Source: a virus (lineage: Duplodnaviria; Heunggongvirae; Uroviricota; Caudoviricetes). From it: a stretch of DNA of 8,079 nt. Shown one piece after another: positions 357 through 6,226 of this stretch (positions are counted from its first letter, which is position 1; every line of letters begins with the position of its first letter). Under the pieces are notes generated by a model. That model searched no databases. It worked only from the letters and a program-made list of their open reading frames with translations, and was not told the DNA's origin. The stretch lies in the IMG/VR virus record IMGVR_UViG_2657244943_000011. One strand, given 5' to 3'. The position numbers and the translations under genes were made by a program.

Positions 357-1571
357 GTGAAACTCAATGCCCGTCAAATAGACACTGCCAAGCCAAAAGA
401 GAAGGCTTACAAGCTGGCTGATGGTGGTGGTCTGTATCTCTTGGTAAAACCTAGTGGAGGAAAATATTGGCGCTTCAAGTATCGTGTAGCTGGTAAAGAG
501 AAGCTGTTAGCACTAGGTGTGTATCCTGAAGTTACTTTGGCTGATGCTCGTGCAAAACGTGAAGAAGCTAAAAGGGGTATCGCTGGGGGTATCGATCCGA
601 TGGAAGCGAAACGAGAGGAAAAGATTGCCCGGGAAACGCAGTTAAACAACACCTTCAAAGATATTGCCCTTGAGTGGCACAGCAGCAAATTAAAAAAATG
701 GTCTGCTGGTTATGCTTCAGACATCCTCGAAGCCTTCAACAAAGATGTGTTCCCTTACATTGGCAAAAAACCAATCGCCGAAATCAAACCACTTGAACTG
801 CTGAATGTGCTGCGGCGCATCGAGGGGCGCGGTGCTACCGAAAAAGCCAAAAAAGTGAGGCAGCGATGCGGGGAAGTTTTCCGCTATGCAATTGTCACTG
901 GACGTGCTGAGTATAACCCTGCACCGGATCTCACCAGCGCGATGCAAGGTCATGAATCTAATCATTATCCTTTCCTCACAGCCAAAGAATTACCTGATTT
1001 TTTCAAGGCATTGTCCAGTTACTCAGGAAGTGCATTGGTTGTTATGGCGGCTCGTCTACTGATTATCACCGGTTTGCGGACTGGCGAACTGCGCGGTGCA
1101 TTATGGGATGAAATCGATCTCAACAAGGCTATCTGGGAGATACCTGCTTCACGGATGAAAATGCGTCGCCCTCATGTGGTGCCTTTGTCTAAGCAGGCTC
1201 TTTCGCTTATTGGGCAGATTAAAGAATTAACTGGCAATTATCCGCTTATGTTTCCCGGCCGTAATGATCCAAGGAAAACAATGAGCGAGGCTAGCATAAA
1301 CCAAGTATTTAAACGCATCGGCTATAATGGAAAGGTTACTGGTCATGGATTCCGGCACACCATGAGCACCATTTTGCATGAGCAGGGCTATAACACCGCG
1401 TGGATAGAGACGCAGCTCGCACACGTCGATAAAAACTCAATTCGTGGCACATACAACCATGCGCAATATCTGGATGGACGGCGGGAAATGCTTCAGTGGT
1501 ACGCCGATTATATGGATTCGCTCGAGCATGGCGGAAATGTGGTGCATGGTGAGTTCGGAAAATGCGGGTGA
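357..1571 (+). CDS. int: site-specific tyrosine recombinase, P4-type integrase
   Basis: 404-aa ORF, GTG start at 357 with GGAGG 10 nt upstream, TGA stop 1569-1571. N-terminus MKLNARQIDTAKPKEKAYKLADGGGLYL...KYWRFKYR is typical of the P4/CP4-57 integrase arm-binding domain; C-terminal catalytic motifs present (TGLRTGELRG box I, HGFRHT box II, Tyr-containing GTYNHAQYLDGRREM). Directly downstream of a tRNA in the same orientation. Confidence 0.9.
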   Translation: MKLNARQIDTAKPKEKAYKLADGGGLYLLVKPSGGKYWRFKYRVAGKEKLLALGVYPEVTLADARAKREEAKRGIAGGIDPMEAKREEKIARETQLNNTFKDIALEWHSSKLKKWSAGYASDILEAFNKDVFPYIGKKPIAEIKPLELLNVLRRIEGRGATEKAKKVRQRCGEVFRYAIVTGRAEYNPAPDLTSAMQGHESNHYPFLTAKELPDFFKALSSYSGSALVVMAARLLIITGLRTGELRGALWDEIDLNKAIWEIPASRMKMRRPHVVPLSKQALSLIGQIKELTGNYPLMFPGRNDPRKTMSEASINQVFKRIGYNGKVTGHGFRHTMSTILHEQGYNTAWIETQLAHVDKNSIRGTYNHAQYLDGRREMLQWYADYMDSLEHGGNVVHGEFGKCG

Positions 1572-1699: not shown

Positions 1700-2497
1700 A
1701 TGATTGATATTCATGCCGAATTAAACGAATACAAAAAAGATTTTATTTCTTTACGTGAATTTCTTGAGGTCGTGCTTAAGGTCGCTGGTGATGATTATGA
1801 TGTTTCAGATGTCATAACTTGGATACTCAGGAGAATAAGCGGAGAACATATCCGCCTGTACACAGTAAATGAATTTAAGCTGTTGGAATCTTTTTGTAAC
1901 CCGTATCGGGATGAATTTGATTATGATGTTCTTTATAGAAATCTGAATGCGGTTCGGAAACGTGGTTGTTTACCTGGTGAGAGGGATGAAAATGGTTTTC
2001 TGGTGTCCGGTTATTGGGAAGATCCCGAATTTGAGAACATTGGATTTATAAGGGGTGAAATTTTCGCAATTTTTCCCGATGTCCTTGACGCGTTAACGAA
2101 GCTGGAAGGCGCTAACTCTTCTGAAAATGACGAGGCACAAGGACGCGATATTGAAAAGAAAGAGTTGCGTACAGAGGATGATTTATTATCCCAAATCGCA
2201 ATGCTGGAAAAAGAAAACGCAGAGTTAAGGGCAAGGATAGAGCAGTTAGAGCAAGAGCGCCCGATACACTTATATAAATACTGGGATAAAGACCCATTAG
2301 CTAAGGCTATTGAGATTAGAAACAGAGAGTGGGCCAATTACGATCCAGAAAATGATTTTGCCACTAGGGGAAATCAAGAAGCGATAACCAGGGAGCTTAA
2401 GCAGTGGGGGGCAAGTAATGCTCTTGCAACGCTCATAGAGAGGACTGCCTGCCCTATTAACCGAGACAACAGCCAAAAGAACGCAAAGCCGGATTAA
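1700..2497 (+). CDS. hypothetical protein, low-GC orphan cargo gene with central acidic linker and coiled-coil segment
   Basis: ORF track frame 1694-2497; I prefer ATG 1700 (GAGG at 1689-1692, 7 nt spacing) over GTG 1694. TAA stop 2495-2497. Three 60-nt samples counted at about 35-42% GC versus about 52% in an int sample. No recognisable catalytic or DNA-binding motif; heptad-like LLSQIAMLEKENAELRARIEQLEQER. Confidence 0.6.
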   Translation: MIDIHAELNEYKKDFISLREFLEVVLKVAGDDYDVSDVITWILRRISGEHIRLYTVNEFKLLESFCNPYRDEFDYDVLYRNLNAVRKRGCLPGERDENGFLVSGYWEDPEFENIGFIRGEIFAIFPDVLDALTKLEGANSSENDEAQGRDIEKKELRTEDDLLSQIAMLEKENAELRARIEQLEQERPIHLYKYWDKDPLAKAIEIRNREWANYDPENDFATRGNQEAITRELKQWGASNALATLIERTACPINRDNSQKNAKPD

Positions 2498-2724: not shown

Positions 2725-2922
2725 ATGTCAAATACGCTTATTCGTTTAACAGAAGTTCAGCGTAGAACTGGATATAGCAAGGCATGGATTTATCGCCTTA
2801 TGGGGCAAGGTAAATTTCCTGCATCAGTTAAAATTGGCTCGCGAGCTATTGCTTTCGTTGAGAGTGAAATTGACGAGTGGATTAATCAGCGTATTGCTGA
2901 ATCACGCGGAACAGCTACCTGA
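2725..2922 (+). CDS. alpA: AlpA-family (phage Vis/excisionase-like) helix-turn-helix transcriptional regulator
   Basis: 65-aa ORF with GAGGT 6 nt upstream of ATG 2725. Sequence MSNTLIRLTEVQRRTGYSKAWIYRLMGQGKFPASVKIGSRAIAFVESEIDEWI matches the AlpA/Vis HTH pattern as I recall it. Its position after a P4-type int is typical of CP4-57-like and PICI-like islands. Confidence 0.85.
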   Translation: MSNTLIRLTEVQRRTGYSKAWIYRLMGQGKFPASVKIGSRAIAFVESEIDEWINQRIAESRGTAT

Positions 2923-3000: not shown

Positions 3001-3801
3001 ATGAAACTGCGAAAAACGCCCGTACAGGGGCAGGGCTTCGTTCGGCCTGAAAACCAGAATCTGCAAAATTTCGGCGAAATTATCCCGGTTATTTCCGGCG
3101 TTATTGGCGGGCGTGAAACCAATATTGTTAGCGGCAGAGCGTTGCATAAGGCGTTAGGTGTAGGTCGCGTTTTCCGTTCGTGGATCAAGGGGCGCATTGA
3201 AGAATACGGCTTCACGGAAGGCGTGGATTATGAGGTTGTTGAATATTTGAGCCGACCCGATCCGGTGAGCGCAAAATCTCGCCAGCAAACAGCTCTTGAG
3301 TACATCATTACCGTGAACATGGCGAAAGAACTGGCGATGGTCGAACGCACCGAACAGGGGCGCGCCGTTCGTCAGTACTTCATCAAATGCGAGGAAGAGC
3401 TACACAAGGTTGCGCCTGTACGTTCCGCAGCGTTACGCCGGGAACTGAAAGCCCGTATCACAGTTGCCAGCTACTTTAAGCCAATGTGTGCCGCGCTGGA
3501 GGACTACCGGGCTGAACTGGATAAAAACACTCTACAGCACCACTACACCACGGAAGCCAATATGCTGGCGCGTATCGTGCTGGGTGGCATGACTGCAAAA
3601 CAGTGGGCGCAGGTGAACGGCATCACAGGCGAACCACGCGACCACATGAGCACGTTGCAGCTTGAGCACCTTTCTTACCTTGAGCAGAGCAATATCACGC
3701 TGATTGAGTTAGGCCAGGACTACCACCAGCGGAAGGCTGAATTAATTCGTCTTTCGCAGCGTTGGTTAGCCCGTCGCATGGAGGAAAACAGCCATGTGTA
3801 A
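3001..3801 (+). CDS. phage antirepressor-like protein (AntA/AntB N-terminal domain type)
   Basis: 266-aa ORF, AGGAG 6 nt upstream of ATG 3001, TAA stop 3799-3801. Segment RALHKALGVGRVFRSWIKGRIEEYGFTEGVDYEV...ITVNMAKELAMVERTEQGRAVRQYFIKCEEEL resembles the AntA-type antirepressor N-terminal domain from memory; not verified by search. Confidence 0.6.
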   Translation: MKLRKTPVQGQGFVRPENQNLQNFGEIIPVISGVIGGRETNIVSGRALHKALGVGRVFRSWIKGRIEEYGFTEGVDYEVVEYLSRPDPVSAKSRQQTALEYIITVNMAKELAMVERTEQGRAVRQYFIKCEEELHKVAPVRSAALRRELKARITVASYFKPMCAALEDYRAELDKNTLQHHYTTEANMLARIVLGGMTAKQWAQVNGITGEPRDHMSTLQLEHLSYLEQSNITLIELGQDYHQRKAELIRLSQRWLARRMEENSHV

Positions 3802-4260
3802 CGCTCTGACCGTTACAAAAAGAGAAAGCGCCCCGTTGCCGGAGCGCCTTTGTGAACGAATAGCCTACTGCGCCATATTGCTTACTGTCTACGAGGCAGA
3901 TTATAGCGTTGTGGTCGCACAGAGTGAAGGCGCTGATCACCGTTACTACAGCACGCCAGAAATGCAGAATATTTTGCTGCAAAATGCCGTTGGCCACGCT
4001 GTCCGGAAAGCAAAAAATTTTGCTGGTGGCGCGACTGATGCGATTTTGTCAGGTCGCCAGGTGCTGATCAATCTGATGTCTGATTTCGTTCTGGATAAAA
4101 CAAAGGCGACCGCAGAGAGCCGCCAGTGGAAAAGCTACATACTTGAACGCATCACCAACAATGCCACATTTGCGGCTGGTGGGCAATGTGTCAGCTTTGC
4201 ACCAATGACTCTAGGTTTAACTGAGGGTCATTATGGTGAATATGCTGGCTTGCTGGTGGG
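3794..4260 (+). pseudogene. uncertain ORF / possible gene remnant; good start signals but no credible stop (frame runs on to 5380)
   Basis: ATG 3794 overlaps the upstream stop (ATGTGTAA) and has TGGAGGA 8 nt upstream, the same coupled-junction architecture as real genes downstream. The first ~140 codons look protein-like; beyond about 4200 the translation becomes Cys/Ser-rich and then runs antisense through the minus-strand gene at 4519-4824. The end coordinate is arbitrary. Confidence 0.2.
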
Positions 4261-4518
4261 CTATTCCTGCTCTTTAACATCGCCATGCCGCGATGTTTTC
4301 CAGGTATGCGACCCCATTTTTGTGCGCCTGTACTCTTTAAGGAATTTCTCAAGGATAAACGCACAGGGCGCGAATCTGTCTGACTCATGCTCGTACGCTA
4401 TCTTTCTGCGCTGTCTTTTCCGTGCCGGTGATGGTGTATTGGTTGATTCTTTGTTGGTCATGGCGCTGCCCTGTAAAACGATGCACCGTAGTTCCTCACA
4501 CCACGGCGCTGGTGATGG

Positions 4519-4824
4519 TTACTCCTGTTCTTTGGCCTTGCGCCGCTGGAGTTCTTCACGCGCGACGGTGACGAGTTGCCCGATCTCCTCGGCTGCTTTG
4601 ACACCGATTTTTTCCACCTGCGCCAGTGCATCGAGCGAAGAAACCAGGGGATTTTCTCCGCTTCCTTCTGCCTGGCGGCGGGCGATTTCACCGCGAACGG
4701 CTGTAATCACGAAAGCGGCTATTGTTTCCCCTTCCGTTTTCGAATTTTCCATTTCCTCGATTACATCATGGGGGAAGCGGATATTTTTCATTTGCGATCT
4801 GCTGTTGATGTTTCCTGTTGCCAT
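4519..4824 (-). CDS. putative ribbon-helix-helix (Arc/MetJ/CopG-like) DNA-binding regulator
   Basis: 101-aa minus-strand ORF with well-formed composition, unlike the plus-frame translation of the same DNA. N-terminal KNIRFPHDVIEEME followed by helical GETIAAFVITAVRGEIARRQA fits a beta-strand/helix/helix RHH pattern. Divergent from the small-gene operon across a palindrome-rich intergenic region. Start could be ATG 4824 or the internal ATG 4791; neither has a strong SD. Confidence 0.5.
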   Translation of the reverse strand: MATGNINSRSQMKNIRFPHDVIEEMENSKTEGETIAAFVITAVRGEIARRQAEGSGENPLVSSLDALAQVEKIGVKAAEEIGQLVTVAREELQRRKAKEQE

Positions 4825-5014
4825 CAGAATGTCCGGTTATTTTGAGGTGTGTACACATTACACCAAAAGGTGTGTTGATAAAACACTTGACACTGTAGCA
4901 CACTTAAATCTAATCTGTGTATACACTAATGATTGTGGTGTATATACAGCAACGCCCCGCAGTGGTGGCACACATGCAGGGCGTCTAACCAAACCGTTAA
5001 ACGAGGTAACGATT
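4825..5014. promoter_or_regulatory. divergent promoter/operator region with three perfect 10-bp palindromes
   Basis: TGTGTACACA (4848-4857), GTGTATACAC (4917-4926), TGTATATACA (4939-4948); additional GGTGT/ACACC half-sites; consensus -35 hexamer TTGACA at 4887-4892 and TTGATA at 4875-4880. AT-rich relative to flanks. Confidence 0.5.
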
Positions 5015-5380
5015 ATGGCTGGAACACAGCATACCCAAACTCACCCTAAATTTATATACACCTTCCTGGCGGTGCACCGTGATTGCATAGCTGACGGTAA
5101 AAACACTGTACACGTAGCCGCTGATACGCTGGTTGATGCCTGCGAGATGCTCAATGACATGGGCTATATCTCGGCAACATGGAAAGGGCGCGAAGAAAAC
5201 ACGCTGTTTATTCAGAAATGCGAGAACAATTTTATCTGGCGTTTTATCGCCCTGAGCACAGCACAACCGCGCGTAATTCACATCGAGGCCACCAGCGAAC
5301 AGGAAGCGCGTCAGCAATCTCCTGATGGCTGCGTGATGGTATTCGCTGCCCGTATTCGCCAGGAGGTGCACCATGCATAA
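5015..5380 (+). CDS. hypothetical protein (first gene of small-gene operon)
   Basis: ATG 5015 with GAGGT 7 nt upstream, TAA stop 5378-5380; 122 aa. In frame with the run-on ORF 3794-5380 but with its own initiation signals. Stop overlaps the next start. Confidence 0.6.
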   Translation: MAGTQHTQTHPKFIYTFLAVHRDCIADGKNTVHVAADTLVDACEMLNDMGYISATWKGREENTLFIQKCENNFIWRFIALSTAQPRVIHIEATSEQEARQQSPDGCVMVFAARIRQEVHHA

Positions 5381-5738
5381 CCTGTCAATTTATGACCTTA
5401 ACAGCATTCAGTTTCGTGAGAAATTCACCGAGCAGCTACTGGTTAACGTGGAGAATGGACGCGTGGTAAGTAATTATCACCTGCCGGATGGTGCAATTGC
5501 CGGAAGCGTTGAAGCATTGCTGGAACTGGCAGAACGTGCGCGACTTATTAAGCCGTTAACGAACCATCACGATGATGATCTGCATTTTACCGGACGCATG
5601 GTGAGTCACTACGAAAACGGCGTCGAGGTATCCCGCGAACGGCTGCGTGATGATTGCTGTTTCGGAACACTGCCGGAATTTAGCGAACTGCTGACCCGTT
5701 GCGATTACCGGATCATTCAGGGGGGAAGTCATGGGTAA
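5373..5738 (+). CDS. hypothetical protein
   Basis: 121-aa ORF; strong SD AGGAGGT (5361-5367) 5 nt before ATG 5373; 8-nt overlap ATGCATAA with upstream stop; TAA stop 5736-5738. Confidence 0.65.
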   Translation: MHNLSIYDLNSIQFREKFTEQLLVNVENGRVVSNYHLPDGAIAGSVEALLELAERARLIKPLTNHHDDDLHFTGRMVSHYENGVEVSRERLRDDCCFGTLPEFSELLTRCDYRIIQGGSHG

Positions 5739-5931
5739 TCAGCCAGCAACAATGACAATTACCCTGAATGTGCCAGATGATTTCACCGGGCGCGTACTGG
5801 TTTACCTGGATAAAGGGAAAGTGAAATCACAATGCCGACTGCGAAATAATGAAATTGTAAGTACGGTAGAAGGCTTTTCTGAACTATGTATTCGTGCAGG
5901 AATAAAACCGGAACTGCTGACAGGAAAATAA
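5731..5931 (+). CDS. hypothetical small protein
   Basis: 66-aa ORF; start overlaps upstream stop (ATGGGTAA); purine-rich GGGGGGAAG just upstream; TAA stop 5929-5931. Confidence 0.6.
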   Translation: MGNQPATMTITLNVPDDFTGRVLVYLDKGKVKSQCRLRNNEIVSTVEGFSELCIRAGIKPELLTGK

Positions 5932-5935
5932 AACC

Positions 5936-6226
5936 ATGAAAAAGAAAAATTCTGGCTTTACTGCCAGCGGCCTCTCTCGGTCTGCAATTCGCTCTGGCGA
6001 TATTTACCGCGACACCAGACGTGGGGGACGAGTGGTTATTCGTCACGTTACGCCAGGCAATATCACCTACCGCCGTGAGGCTTACGAATATGACTGCGTA
6101 ATGCCGCGCCGTCAGTTTGAGCGTGATTTTATTCTGGTGGAAAACAAACAATTGGCGGTGGCAAGACGTGCAGCCTCGAATATTAAAAAAATCCGGGCAA
6201 TGTTGGTTGCGGGAGGTAAGAAGTGA
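5936..6226 (+). CDS. hypothetical small basic protein
   Basis: 96-aa ORF 4 nt after the upstream stop; Lys/Arg-rich termini (MKKKNSG..., ...VAGGKK); TGA stop 6224-6226 overlaps the GTG start of the next gene (GTGA). Confidence 0.6.
   Translation: MKKKNSGFTASGLSRSAIRSGDIYRDTRRGGRVVIRHVTPGNITYRREAYEYDCVMPRRQFERDFILVENKQLAVARRAASNIKKIRAMLVAGGKK

Follow-up and report, generated by a model that had tools for sequence, protein, structure and literature searches.

The stretch analyzed here (the window) is 8,079 nt of IMG/VR virus record IMGVR_UViG_2657244943_000011 (Caudoviricetes). By its gene layout we take it to be the left part of a phage satellite of the phage-inducible chromosomal island (PICI) or capsid-forming PICI (cf-PICI) type, integrated at tRNA-Thr(CGT): an integrase gene beside the att-site tRNA, alpA, and a primase-replication (pri-rep) gene are all co-oriented, as in PICI-type islands. 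We describe three gene junctions that share one 8-nt start/stop overlap (the -8 form; J1, J2, and J3) and the 528-codon open reading frame (ORF) between J1 and J2, here called the bridge, which lies antisense to a minus-strand cassette with the probable repressor gene of the island. The CATGNNTAA motif at the junctions is ordinary when taken alone; what J1 and J2 delimit is not. The genes from alpA to the primase gene, with their junctions and Shine-Dalgarno (SD) sequences, are given below; annotations are those of the NCBI Prokaryotic Genome Annotation Pipeline (PGAP).

2725..2922, plus strand: alpA, 65 aa (Pfam Phage_AlpA, E = 2.4e-19)
3001..3801, plus strand: antA/AntB-family gene, 266 aa (Pfam AntA, E = 6.8e-23), PGAP-annotated; upstream partner at J1
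3780..3784, plus strand: SD sequence GGAGG, 9 nt 5' of ATG 3794, read from the sequence and invariant in 38 related loci
3793..3801, plus strand: J1, CATGTGTAA, -8 overlap of the antA stop (3799-3801) and the bridge start (3794-3796)
3794..5380, plus strand: bridge ORF, 528 codons, from J1 to J2; antisense of the minus-strand cassette, then the divergent promoter region, then the Icd-like ORF
4261..4461, minus strand: 66-aa gene (hypothetical protein in PGAP), antisense within the bridge
4519..4824, minus strand: YlcI/YnfO-family (DUF3950) gene (NCBIfam YlcI_YnfO_N, 64.2 bits), antisense within the bridge
5015..5380, plus strand: proximal Icd-like ORF, 121 aa, the last quarter of the bridge; upstream partner at J2
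5361..5366, plus strand: SD sequence AGGAGG (extended form AGGAGGTG), 6 nt 5' of ATG 5373
5372..5380, plus strand: J2, CATGCATAA, -8 overlap of the Icd-like stop and the start of the 121-aa gene, both PGAP-annotated
5373..5738, plus strand: 121-aa gene with two tandem copies of a domain of about 55 aa, PGAP-annotated
5720..5725, plus strand: G-run SD sequence GGGGGG, 5 nt 5' of ATG 5731
5730..5738, plus strand: J3, CATGGGTAA, -8 overlap of the 121-aa gene stop and the 66-aa gene start, PGAP-annotated
5731..5931, plus strand: 66-aa gene with a single copy of the domain of about 55 aa, PGAP-annotated
5929..5938, plus strand: J4, TAAaaccATG, a 4-nt gap ahead of the DUF4222 gene
5936-6226, plus strand: DUF4222 gene
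6223..6226, plus strand: J5, GTGA, -4 overlap of the DUF4222 stop and the primase-helicase start
6223 to past the window end, plus strand: DUF927 primase-helicase gene

Scanning both strands, we found exactly three matches to CATGNNTAA in the window, all on the plus strand (at 3793, 5372, and 5730). The sequence-only reading had described a common 8-nt overlap at 3794, 5373, and 5731, and its codon readings proved exact (AGC CAT GTG TAA/ATG TGT AAC at J1, CAC CAT GCA TAA/ATG CAT AAC at J2, and AGT CAT GGG TAA/ATG GGT AAT at J3). At each junction, the TAA closes an ORF (266 aa from 3001 to 3801, the frame ending at 5380, and 121 aa from 5373 to 5738), and the ATG opens another (528, 121, and 66 aa, respectively). 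In all three, the geometry is -8, and the final codons of the gene upstream contain a strong SD sequence at a spacing of 5 to 9 nt. As a bare pattern, the count is insignificant: three matches to CATGNNTAA compare with 1.27 expected, at least three occurred in 31 of 200 shuffles, and the looser ATGNNTRA shows no enrichment (8 versus 10.06 expected). The endings His-x-stop and Met-x-Asn, which had been put forward as a signal, were over-read. Because the two overlapping frames share the same bases, these residues are largely forced. In the ATGNNTAA overlap, the upstream frame reads NAT-GNN-TAA and the downstream frame reads ATG-NNT-AAN, and this limits the penultimate upstream residue to Asn, His, Asp, or Tyr, the last one to Val, Ala, Asp, Glu, or Gly, and the third downstream residue to Asn or Lys. 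What the geometry leaves free in the window junctions is just the C at -1 (3/3) and the pyrimidine after the TAA (3/3). Support for the junctions beyond chance comes from the comparison with relatives and not from the window.

The comparison covered about 115 related islands from E. coli and eight other genera. The E. coli set consisted of 39 related islands from a DNA scan. We walked the junctions in 49 islands, namely, the window, 37 IMG/VR loci, and 11 islands from a genome scan. A set from other species (12 islands) was collected by a genome scan with a 7-sequence Icd alignment, anchored only on the Icd domain, and included Klebsiella, Pantoea, Hafnia, Enterobacter, Rahnella, Citrobacter, Rosenbergiella, Intestinirhabdus, Superficieibacter, E. 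ruysiae, and Shigella. In a second IMG/VR sample, also anchored only on the Icd domain, the best 80 of 468 loci yielded 65 unique ones.

J1 is near-invariant in 38 islands: 35 are identical over positions -30 to +20, three carry one flank substitution, and the core ATGTGTAA is the same in 38/38 related loci. The E. coli relatives keep the -8 architecture of J2 and J3 as well, and their -8 junctions all fit an SD sequence, 5 to 9 nt, and C-ATG-NNT-(A/G)A. At J2, the -8 form also occurs in Klebsiella, Pantoea, Hafnia, Enterobacter, Rahnella, Rosenbergiella, Intestinirhabdus, and Superficieibacter; in the other-species set it was found at the Icd stop in 11 of the 12 islands (one with T at -1), the Shigella island having a -11 overlap instead. 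The share of -8 junctions is 3/5 in the window and up to 5/7 in relatives. One E. coli operon has five consecutive -8 overlaps, the most seen, linking AntA, the bridge, and proteins of 74, 121, 77, and 66 aa, after which come a 4-nt gap, a 96-aa gene, and a -4 overlap with the primase gene. In the other genera, successive genes from the Icd-like one through to the primase either overlap by 1 to 17 nt or are separated by no more than 7 nt, the one exception being a 69-nt gap in Shigella (L049). A conserved junction design, which had been suggested from the window, is supported by the comparison of related islands.

The 49 islands contain 21 distinct clusters of -8 junctions, each with an SD sequence upstream at a working distance. 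C is found at -1 in 18 of them, C at +4 in 16, and T after the stop in 15; the stop is TAA in 11 and TGA in 10. Among the 14 distinct clusters of -4 junctions, the base at -1 is A in 11, T in 3, and C in none. Together these give a family-wide consensus at -8 junctions, C-ATG-C-R-T-R-A-T, which we did not find reported in the literature and which could be tested for an effect on reinitiation. In a library of 1.84 billion representative proteins, we counted 122 clusters of C-terminal Icd-like proteins, of which 86 end His-x-stop and a further 14 end His/Tyr-x-Gln-stop. We infer that J1 to J3 link the rightward genes by termination-reinitiation coupling. The partner genes at J2 and J3 are under purifying selection in frame, with ratios of nonsynonymous to synonymous polymorphism (pN/pS) of 0.10 (Icd-like), 0.28 (121 aa), and 0.46 (66 aa). 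The downstream partner at J1 is a frame that relatives keep open without amino acid-level constraint.

This frame, the bridge, begins at the first start codon 3' of an in-frame TAG at 3767. Over the window span, it has no internal stops, compared with 25 and 31 in the other two plus-strand frames. Composition-preserving nulls put the probability of this, from the window alone, at 0.185 x 0.111 x 0.00025 x 0.57 x 0.014, or about 4e-8. The frame is unbroken in 46/49 islands. Among the E. coli islands, 37/38 have no internal stop in it and 13 to 35 in every other frame, even though its middle is a mosaic of at least eight unrelated cassettes that give it lengths of 258 to 598 codons. We compared the mosaic cassettes by BLAST blocks, since mosaic segments misalign in the 19-sequence MAFFT alignment. 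In 19 colinear variants, frame 0 has no stop sites, and frames 1 and 2 have 58 and 71, of which 53 and 66 are polymorphic. Two islands have the bridge split into two ORFs, which restart 8 and 30 nt after the stop.

The other genera show the same arrangement. In 9 of 11 evaluable islands, an ORF of 274 to 351 codons ends in the Icd domain and starts -17 to +9 nt from the stop of the upstream gene (alpA or a cargo gene), with one start at +74. The Icd-anchored IMG/VR sample (65 loci) has a median of 392 open codons and a minimum of at least 140, with 200 or more in 62/65. Where an upstream gene was identified (51 loci), the first ATG lies within 19 nt of its stop in 46 and at -95 or +52 in the remaining 5; the overlap at the bridge start is exactly -8 in 33. 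The repeated junctions had been read as independent evidence that ATG 3794 is, or once was, a genuine start. In favor of this are the GGAGG at 9 nt, its place as the first start after the in-frame TAG, and the frame held open in nearly all relatives. What it opens is not an ordinary gene, having neither amino acid-level selection nor a PGAP annotation.

Islands without antA (L013, L045, L050, and L053) were also observed. There the bridge begins 8 to 19 nt beyond the stop codon of AlpA, which itself falls within the SD sequence (GTGTGAGG). antA and other genes of 230 to 280 aa look like optional cargo between alpA and the bridge. Most such cargo genes keep a tight junction (-8, -4, or -17); in L046 the first ATG is 74 nt downstream.

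Next, we considered selection on the bridge. For antA, pN/pS was 0.39 in frame versus 1.25 and 1.54 out of frame, and in relatives the genes after J2 also had low in-frame values (121-aa gene, 0.28; 66-aa gene, 0.46; DUF4222, 0.30), with values of about 1 or more out of frame. Over the Icd-like ORF (5015-5377), pN/pS was 0.10. In the bridge between 3794 and 4260, frame 0 gave 0.70 and then 1.16, and the other frames gave 0.63 and 0.69, so that all frames fell at about 0.6 to 1.2. Purifying selection on a protein of the bridge's own was therefore not found outside the repressor gene, where pN/pS was about 0.7 to 1.2, much like the off-frames. Along the YlcI-like gene, it was 0.39 in the bridge frame and 0.34 in the gene's own frame. 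Taken together, the polymorphism and the missing stops indicate that over 3794-5014 the open frame is selected and the amino acid sequence is not.

The minus-strand genes face the bridge in a constant phase. All 10 distinct repressor alleles (10/10) place minus-strand codon position 1 on plus-strand codon position 2, and these ten alleles create no stops on the plus strand (combined probability of about 1e-6 in codon-order shuffles). In that phase, plus-strand stops arise only from a T- or C-ending codon before Tyr or from a T-ending codon before His or Gln. Wobble positions thus face wobble positions, and plus-strand stops are avoidable by synonymous choices alone.

Joined by J1 to J3, the 4-nt gap at J4, and the GTGA at J5, the ORFs follow one another without interruption from antA to the primase gene. 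Given the junctions, their conservation, the open frame, and its lack of amino acid constraint, we lean toward the view that these ORFs are coupled in translation and, as an unbroken chain, keep ribosomes on a read-through transcript driven by AlpA. For the bridge itself, our suggestion is more tentative: a frame of 250 to 650 codons whose peptide is irrelevant may be held open, in fixed phase opposite the repressor, as a path for ribosomes. Such a translated excludon could allow PICI and cf-PICI satellites of Enterobacterales to bypass their own repressor on induction. AlpA is the activator of the E. coli PICI cycle, acting on its own promoter and on downstream genes, and its overexpression drives replication (PMC6092414). 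The AlpA of Pseudomonas aeruginosa, a different AlpA from the one in the window, is a processive antiterminator (PMC7969949). On induction, transcription from the upstream AlpA-controlled promoter would read through the repressor cassette, and the read-through RNA would cross 1.2 to 1.6 kb antisense to it. Long untranslated antisense RNA is a classic Rho target. If the whole stretch were translated, the transcript would not be naked and would be shielded from Rho-dependent termination; ribosome cover might alternatively, or in addition, guard the RNA against pairing with the repressor mRNA or against RNase attack. The read-through transcript would override the repressed local promoter, run against repressor transcription, and bring ribosomes to the replication genes. 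A terminator scan gave no convincing plus-strand terminator from alpA to the primase gene, the sole hit being a weak 5-bp stem at 4647-4659. GC skew, used as a proxy for Rho loading sites, was weak.

Several observations count against this proposal. PGAP calls no plus-strand gene from 3802 to the Icd-like gene and none at 3794. The E. coli islands are related to each other, and inclusion in the first sample required the first 134 codons to be open. Since the YlcI-like and bridge frames share wobble positions, pN/pS cannot separate the strands there. In Rahnella victoriana (L051), the Icd-like gene and an Arc-like gene on the minus strand are present, but there is no bridge ORF. Rho protection alone leaves the near-constant in-frame link between the bridge and the Icd-like ORF unexplained. 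Finally, if the AlpA of the window acted as a Q-like antiterminator, it might by itself guard against termination, and a translational shield would be less necessary.

That in-frame link, present in 46/49 islands, speaks for a different view, in which the bridge encodes a functional long protein, either an N-terminally extended Icd-like isoform or a fusion, and is a true antisense overlapping gene. Gene callers predict Icd-like proteins of 200 to 640 aa with the domain at the extreme C terminus, and the first 90 or so codons (nt 1 to 278) are common to most E. coli relatives in frame at 83 to 99% nucleotide identity. We nevertheless think such a protein unlikely. The full block of about 130 codons is present in fewer relatives and is not conserved at the amino acid level; between 3794 and 4260, pN/pS is no lower in frame 0 (0.70, then 1.16) than in the others (0.63 and 0.69). 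The middle is swapped wholesale between islands and is wholly different between genera, its Ser/Cys/Arg-rich composition is that of antisense translation, and matches to Pfam and NCBIfam families are confined to the last 48 residues. A somewhat more doubtful alternative is that the junctions are a footprint of cassette recombination, with modules that start after a shared SD sequence (GGAGGTG or a G-run) carrying the spacer-ATG-NNT-RA along; the -8 form would then persist because it hands any upstream gene a built-in stop. Consistent with this, J2 and J3 and the corresponding junctions of relatives are identical up to CAGGAGGTG or TTCAGGGGGG and then diverge, a constant 13 nt precedes the 121-aa gene, a 74-aa cassette sits between two copies of CAGGAGGTG, and the 121-aa family has many unequal-crossover variants. 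Recombination of this kind would account for the spread of the junctions but not for the conserved open frame from J1 to J2, and the J1, J2, and J3 flanks show no significant likeness to one another. It is also compatible with coupling and does not exclude it.

We give the least credence to an ordinary compact operon, in which the -8 overlaps would reflect shared ancestry and drift and the frame from 3794 would be a functionless by-product. The -8 spacing is recognized as a class that is enriched among prokaryotes (PMC12548453), the raw motif count is insignificant, and the frame is without amino acid selection over 3794-5014 and without a PGAP call, all as this explanation would have it. A by-product frame would, however, gain stops, and the 19 colinear variants have no polymorphic stop sites in frame 0, against 53 and 66 in frames 1 and 2. 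The frame stays open and keeps its phase through at least eight unrelated cassettes and in nine genera, and the null probability for the window is about 4e-8. Drift also fits poorly with the C at -1, found in 18/21 clusters of -8 junctions versus 0/14 clusters of -4 junctions.

Translation as a means of sustaining transcription, as proposed here for the coupled chain, has parallels in known control regions. In the immI region of phage P1 (c4 RNA-icd-ant), blocked leader translation reportedly lets Rho stop downstream transcription, a result said to go back to Biere, Citron, and Schuster in 1992; the same is said of the immunity of satellite P4 (cI RNA, kil/eta), associated with Forti, Briani, and coworkers. 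The window resembles P1 immI in having an Icd-like domain (NCBIfam NF033153) and an Icd stop that overlaps the start of the next gene, and it would resemble both systems in using translation to sustain transcription in a control region. It differs from P1 immI in having ant upstream of Icd and an unrelated 121-aa protein gene after it, and from both systems in having a leader of hundreds of codons that is antisense to a repressor gene. When the full window was scanned with Rfam (E <= 1), no c4- or cI-type RNA appeared 5' of the Icd-like gene; the hits were the tRNA, the int-alpA RNA motif, and a subthreshold antisense match over the tRNA. A tblastn search with the Icd-like ORF against 50,697 phage records returned neither P1 nor P7 at E <= 1e-3, and the single hit was the cf-PICI-like vB_KppS-Ant. 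We therefore rejected a P1 immI icd-ant architecture for the window: the Icd domain is present, but there is no c4 RNA and no P1 match, and ant is on the other side.

The junctions belong to a known class of -8 overlaps (NTGNNTGA/TAA), in which the ATG lies 5 nt before the stop, the SD sequence is in the upstream gene, and the partners are codirectional operon neighbors (PMC12548453, PMC6728339). In genomes at large, -8 is a minority form behind -4 and -1 (PMC12548453), whereas here it is dominant. As in excludons (PMC7154746), the rightward transcript would be both antisense to the repressor cassette and mRNA for the replication genes; the present case, known from its gene layout, differs in that the antisense stretch is an ORF of 250 to 650 codons tied in by start/stop overlaps. 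Antisense overlapping genes of E. coli (ano, pop, and others; PMC5960689, PMC9927249, and bioRxiv 10.1101/2020.11.18.388249) likewise have a long ORF opposite an annotated gene, with a start and an SD sequence. Those cases rest on the expression and phenotype of single loci; what we have here is openness across mosaic alleles and genera, with a peptide that is seemingly unconstrained. The window shares with E. coli PICIs and cf-PICIs the int-alpA-...-pri/rep order by a tRNA and the AlpA activator (PMC6092414), and that paper makes no mention of a minus-strand YlcI-like cassette or of a bridging frame. We found no description of the bridge ORF in the literature on Icd-like proteins, on antisense ORFs over repressors, or on cf-PICI regulation. 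The junction type is thus known, and a conserved stop-free frame that bridges a satellite's repressor cassette is, as far as we found, undescribed.

If translation here is for its own sake, selection would be holding hundreds of codons open regardless of the protein, as a way to manage a transcript. The regulation of E. coli PICIs has been called unclear (PMC6092414), and the proposed path would provide a concrete switch from AlpA induction to replication in Gram-negative phage satellites. Database entries for this frame are Icd-like or hypothetical proteins of 200 to 640 aa with the domain at the extreme C terminus; proteins of this kind, conserved only in their last 50 residues, would then be an annotation problem. 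The arrangement would also provide a natural design rule for antisense overlap, in which wobble opposite wobble comes at no cost to the sense gene.

Module duplication had also been raised as a source of the repeated junctions, and this stands in part. The genes downstream of J2 and J3 are paralogous: residues 64 to 113 of the 121-aa protein align to residues 13 to 59 of the 66-aa protein (36% identity; E = 1e-6 by BLASTP), and the two halves of the 121-aa protein align to each other (E = 0.009). Alignments were not obtained between the first half of the 121-aa protein and the 66-aa protein or between the bridge N terminus and the 121-aa protein. Cassettes have been swapped with breakpoints inside the SD sequence. 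Through CAGGAGGTG, J2 matches the Icd-to-74-aa junction of relatives exactly, and the two diverge after it; J3 and the 121-to-77-aa junction of relatives likewise match through TTCAGGGGGG and diverge beyond it. The same 13 nt, "caggaggtgcacc ATGCATAA cc", precede the 121-aa gene whether the Icd-like or the 74-aa gene is upstream, and the 74-aa cassette is flanked on either side by CAGGAGGTG. With breakpoints inside the SD sequence, the spacer, the ATG, and the built-in stop therefore move with the downstream module. What did not hold is a likeness of the J1, J2, and J3 flanks beyond the functional core. In local alignments of 60 nt upstream and 22 nt downstream against shuffles, only pairs with the same upstream gene scored, and the resemblance between the protein tails ARRMEENSHV and ARIRQEVHHA was not significant.

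Database relatives of the 121-aa protein (in the set P0156-P0179) have lengths of 67, 73, 80, 83, 87, 91, and 97 aa and look like unequal crossovers between the two domain copies. Variants of 169 to 196 aa read past the usual stop into a different downstream gene, and those of 196 aa again end Ser-His-Ala-stop.

The minus-strand cassette and the region between it and the Icd-like ORF contain the following further elements.

3825..3850, minus strand: intrinsic-terminator-like hairpin with a T-run, 11-bp stem with 7 GC pairs (terminator scan)
4105-4124 and 4483-4509, minus strand: further terminator-like hairpins
4848..4948: divergent control region with three 10-bp palindromes, putatively operators, and a possible TTGACA at 4887-4892
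4952..4984, plus strand: conserved hairpin 5' of the proximal Icd start, with stems that differ among relatives by compensatory changes; the CTAACC leader is next to it

The YlcI/YnfO-family (DUF3950) gene, which is ribbon-helix-helix-like, is the probable island repressor gene. We did not retain a firm ribbon-helix-helix assignment, as the matches to Arc and AmrZ were only weak; the firm family is DUF3950/YlcI_YnfO_N. The 66-aa minus-strand gene keeps an RFAPC.F.LE.FLKE motif in divergent alleles and has the same phase as the YlcI-like gene. Both genes end Lys-Glu-Gln-Glu-stop, with similar 15-mers at 4260-4274 (CTATTCCTGCTCTTT) and 4519-4533 (TTACTCCTGTTCTTT; both in plus-strand letters), which suggests that the two 3' ends are shared or duplicated. 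The strongest minus-strand terminator-like hairpin lies in a 57-nt segment (3817-3873), which we also found, with about 91% identity, in many E. coli genomes that are not otherwise related; in a few, it lies under a gene with a BRO-N domain.

The three palindromes, TGTGTACACA, GTGTATACAC, and TGTATATACA (4848-4857, 4917-4926, and 4939-4948), lie between the YlcI-like gene and the Icd-like ORF. The leader CTAACCAAACCGTTAA, 3' of the hairpin, is conserved in E. coli relatives of leader type 1 and is recognizable, in altered form, in Rahnella victoriana. The Icd-like domain itself (5231-5362; NCBIfam phage_ICD_like, 75.5 bits against a cutoff of 25) occupies residues 480 to 523 of the 528-aa ORF. 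RefSeq places the Icd-like start differently for identical sequence, at 4808 in NZ_CP132983 and at 5159 in NC_011748. ATG 5015, with a GAGG 8 nt 5' of it (5003-5006) and a pN/pS of 0.10 from there onward, looks like the better proximal start.

The left end of the window has the following features upstream of alpA.

115-190: tRNA-Thr(CGT), near the window start
357-1571, plus strand: tyrosine integrase gene
1700-2497, plus strand: 265-aa ORF

We found the island in 27 complete E. coli genomes, including those of the natural carriers 55989 and O104:H4, to which the window is matched at 99.8%. The IMG/VR contigs with related loci are about 7.6 to 71 kb long, many of them 11 to 19 kb. One relative with the same core and bridge architecture is vB_KppS-Ant (LR881103), an induced element of 16.5 kb that has genes for capsid, portal, and terminase. 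The Rfam int-alpA RNA motif (RF02996) matches at 1616-1683 on the plus strand (44.2 bits; gathering score, 35.8) and sits 5' of the 265-aa ORF, not directly 5' of alpA. Upstream of alpA, the palindrome ACCCT(G/T)AGGGT occurs five times (2513-2524, 2535-2546, 2578-2589, 2611-2622, and 2646-2657); two copies lie within 33-nt direct repeats, and two are followed by T-runs, as in terminators. These palindromes are candidate sites for AlpA or another regulator.

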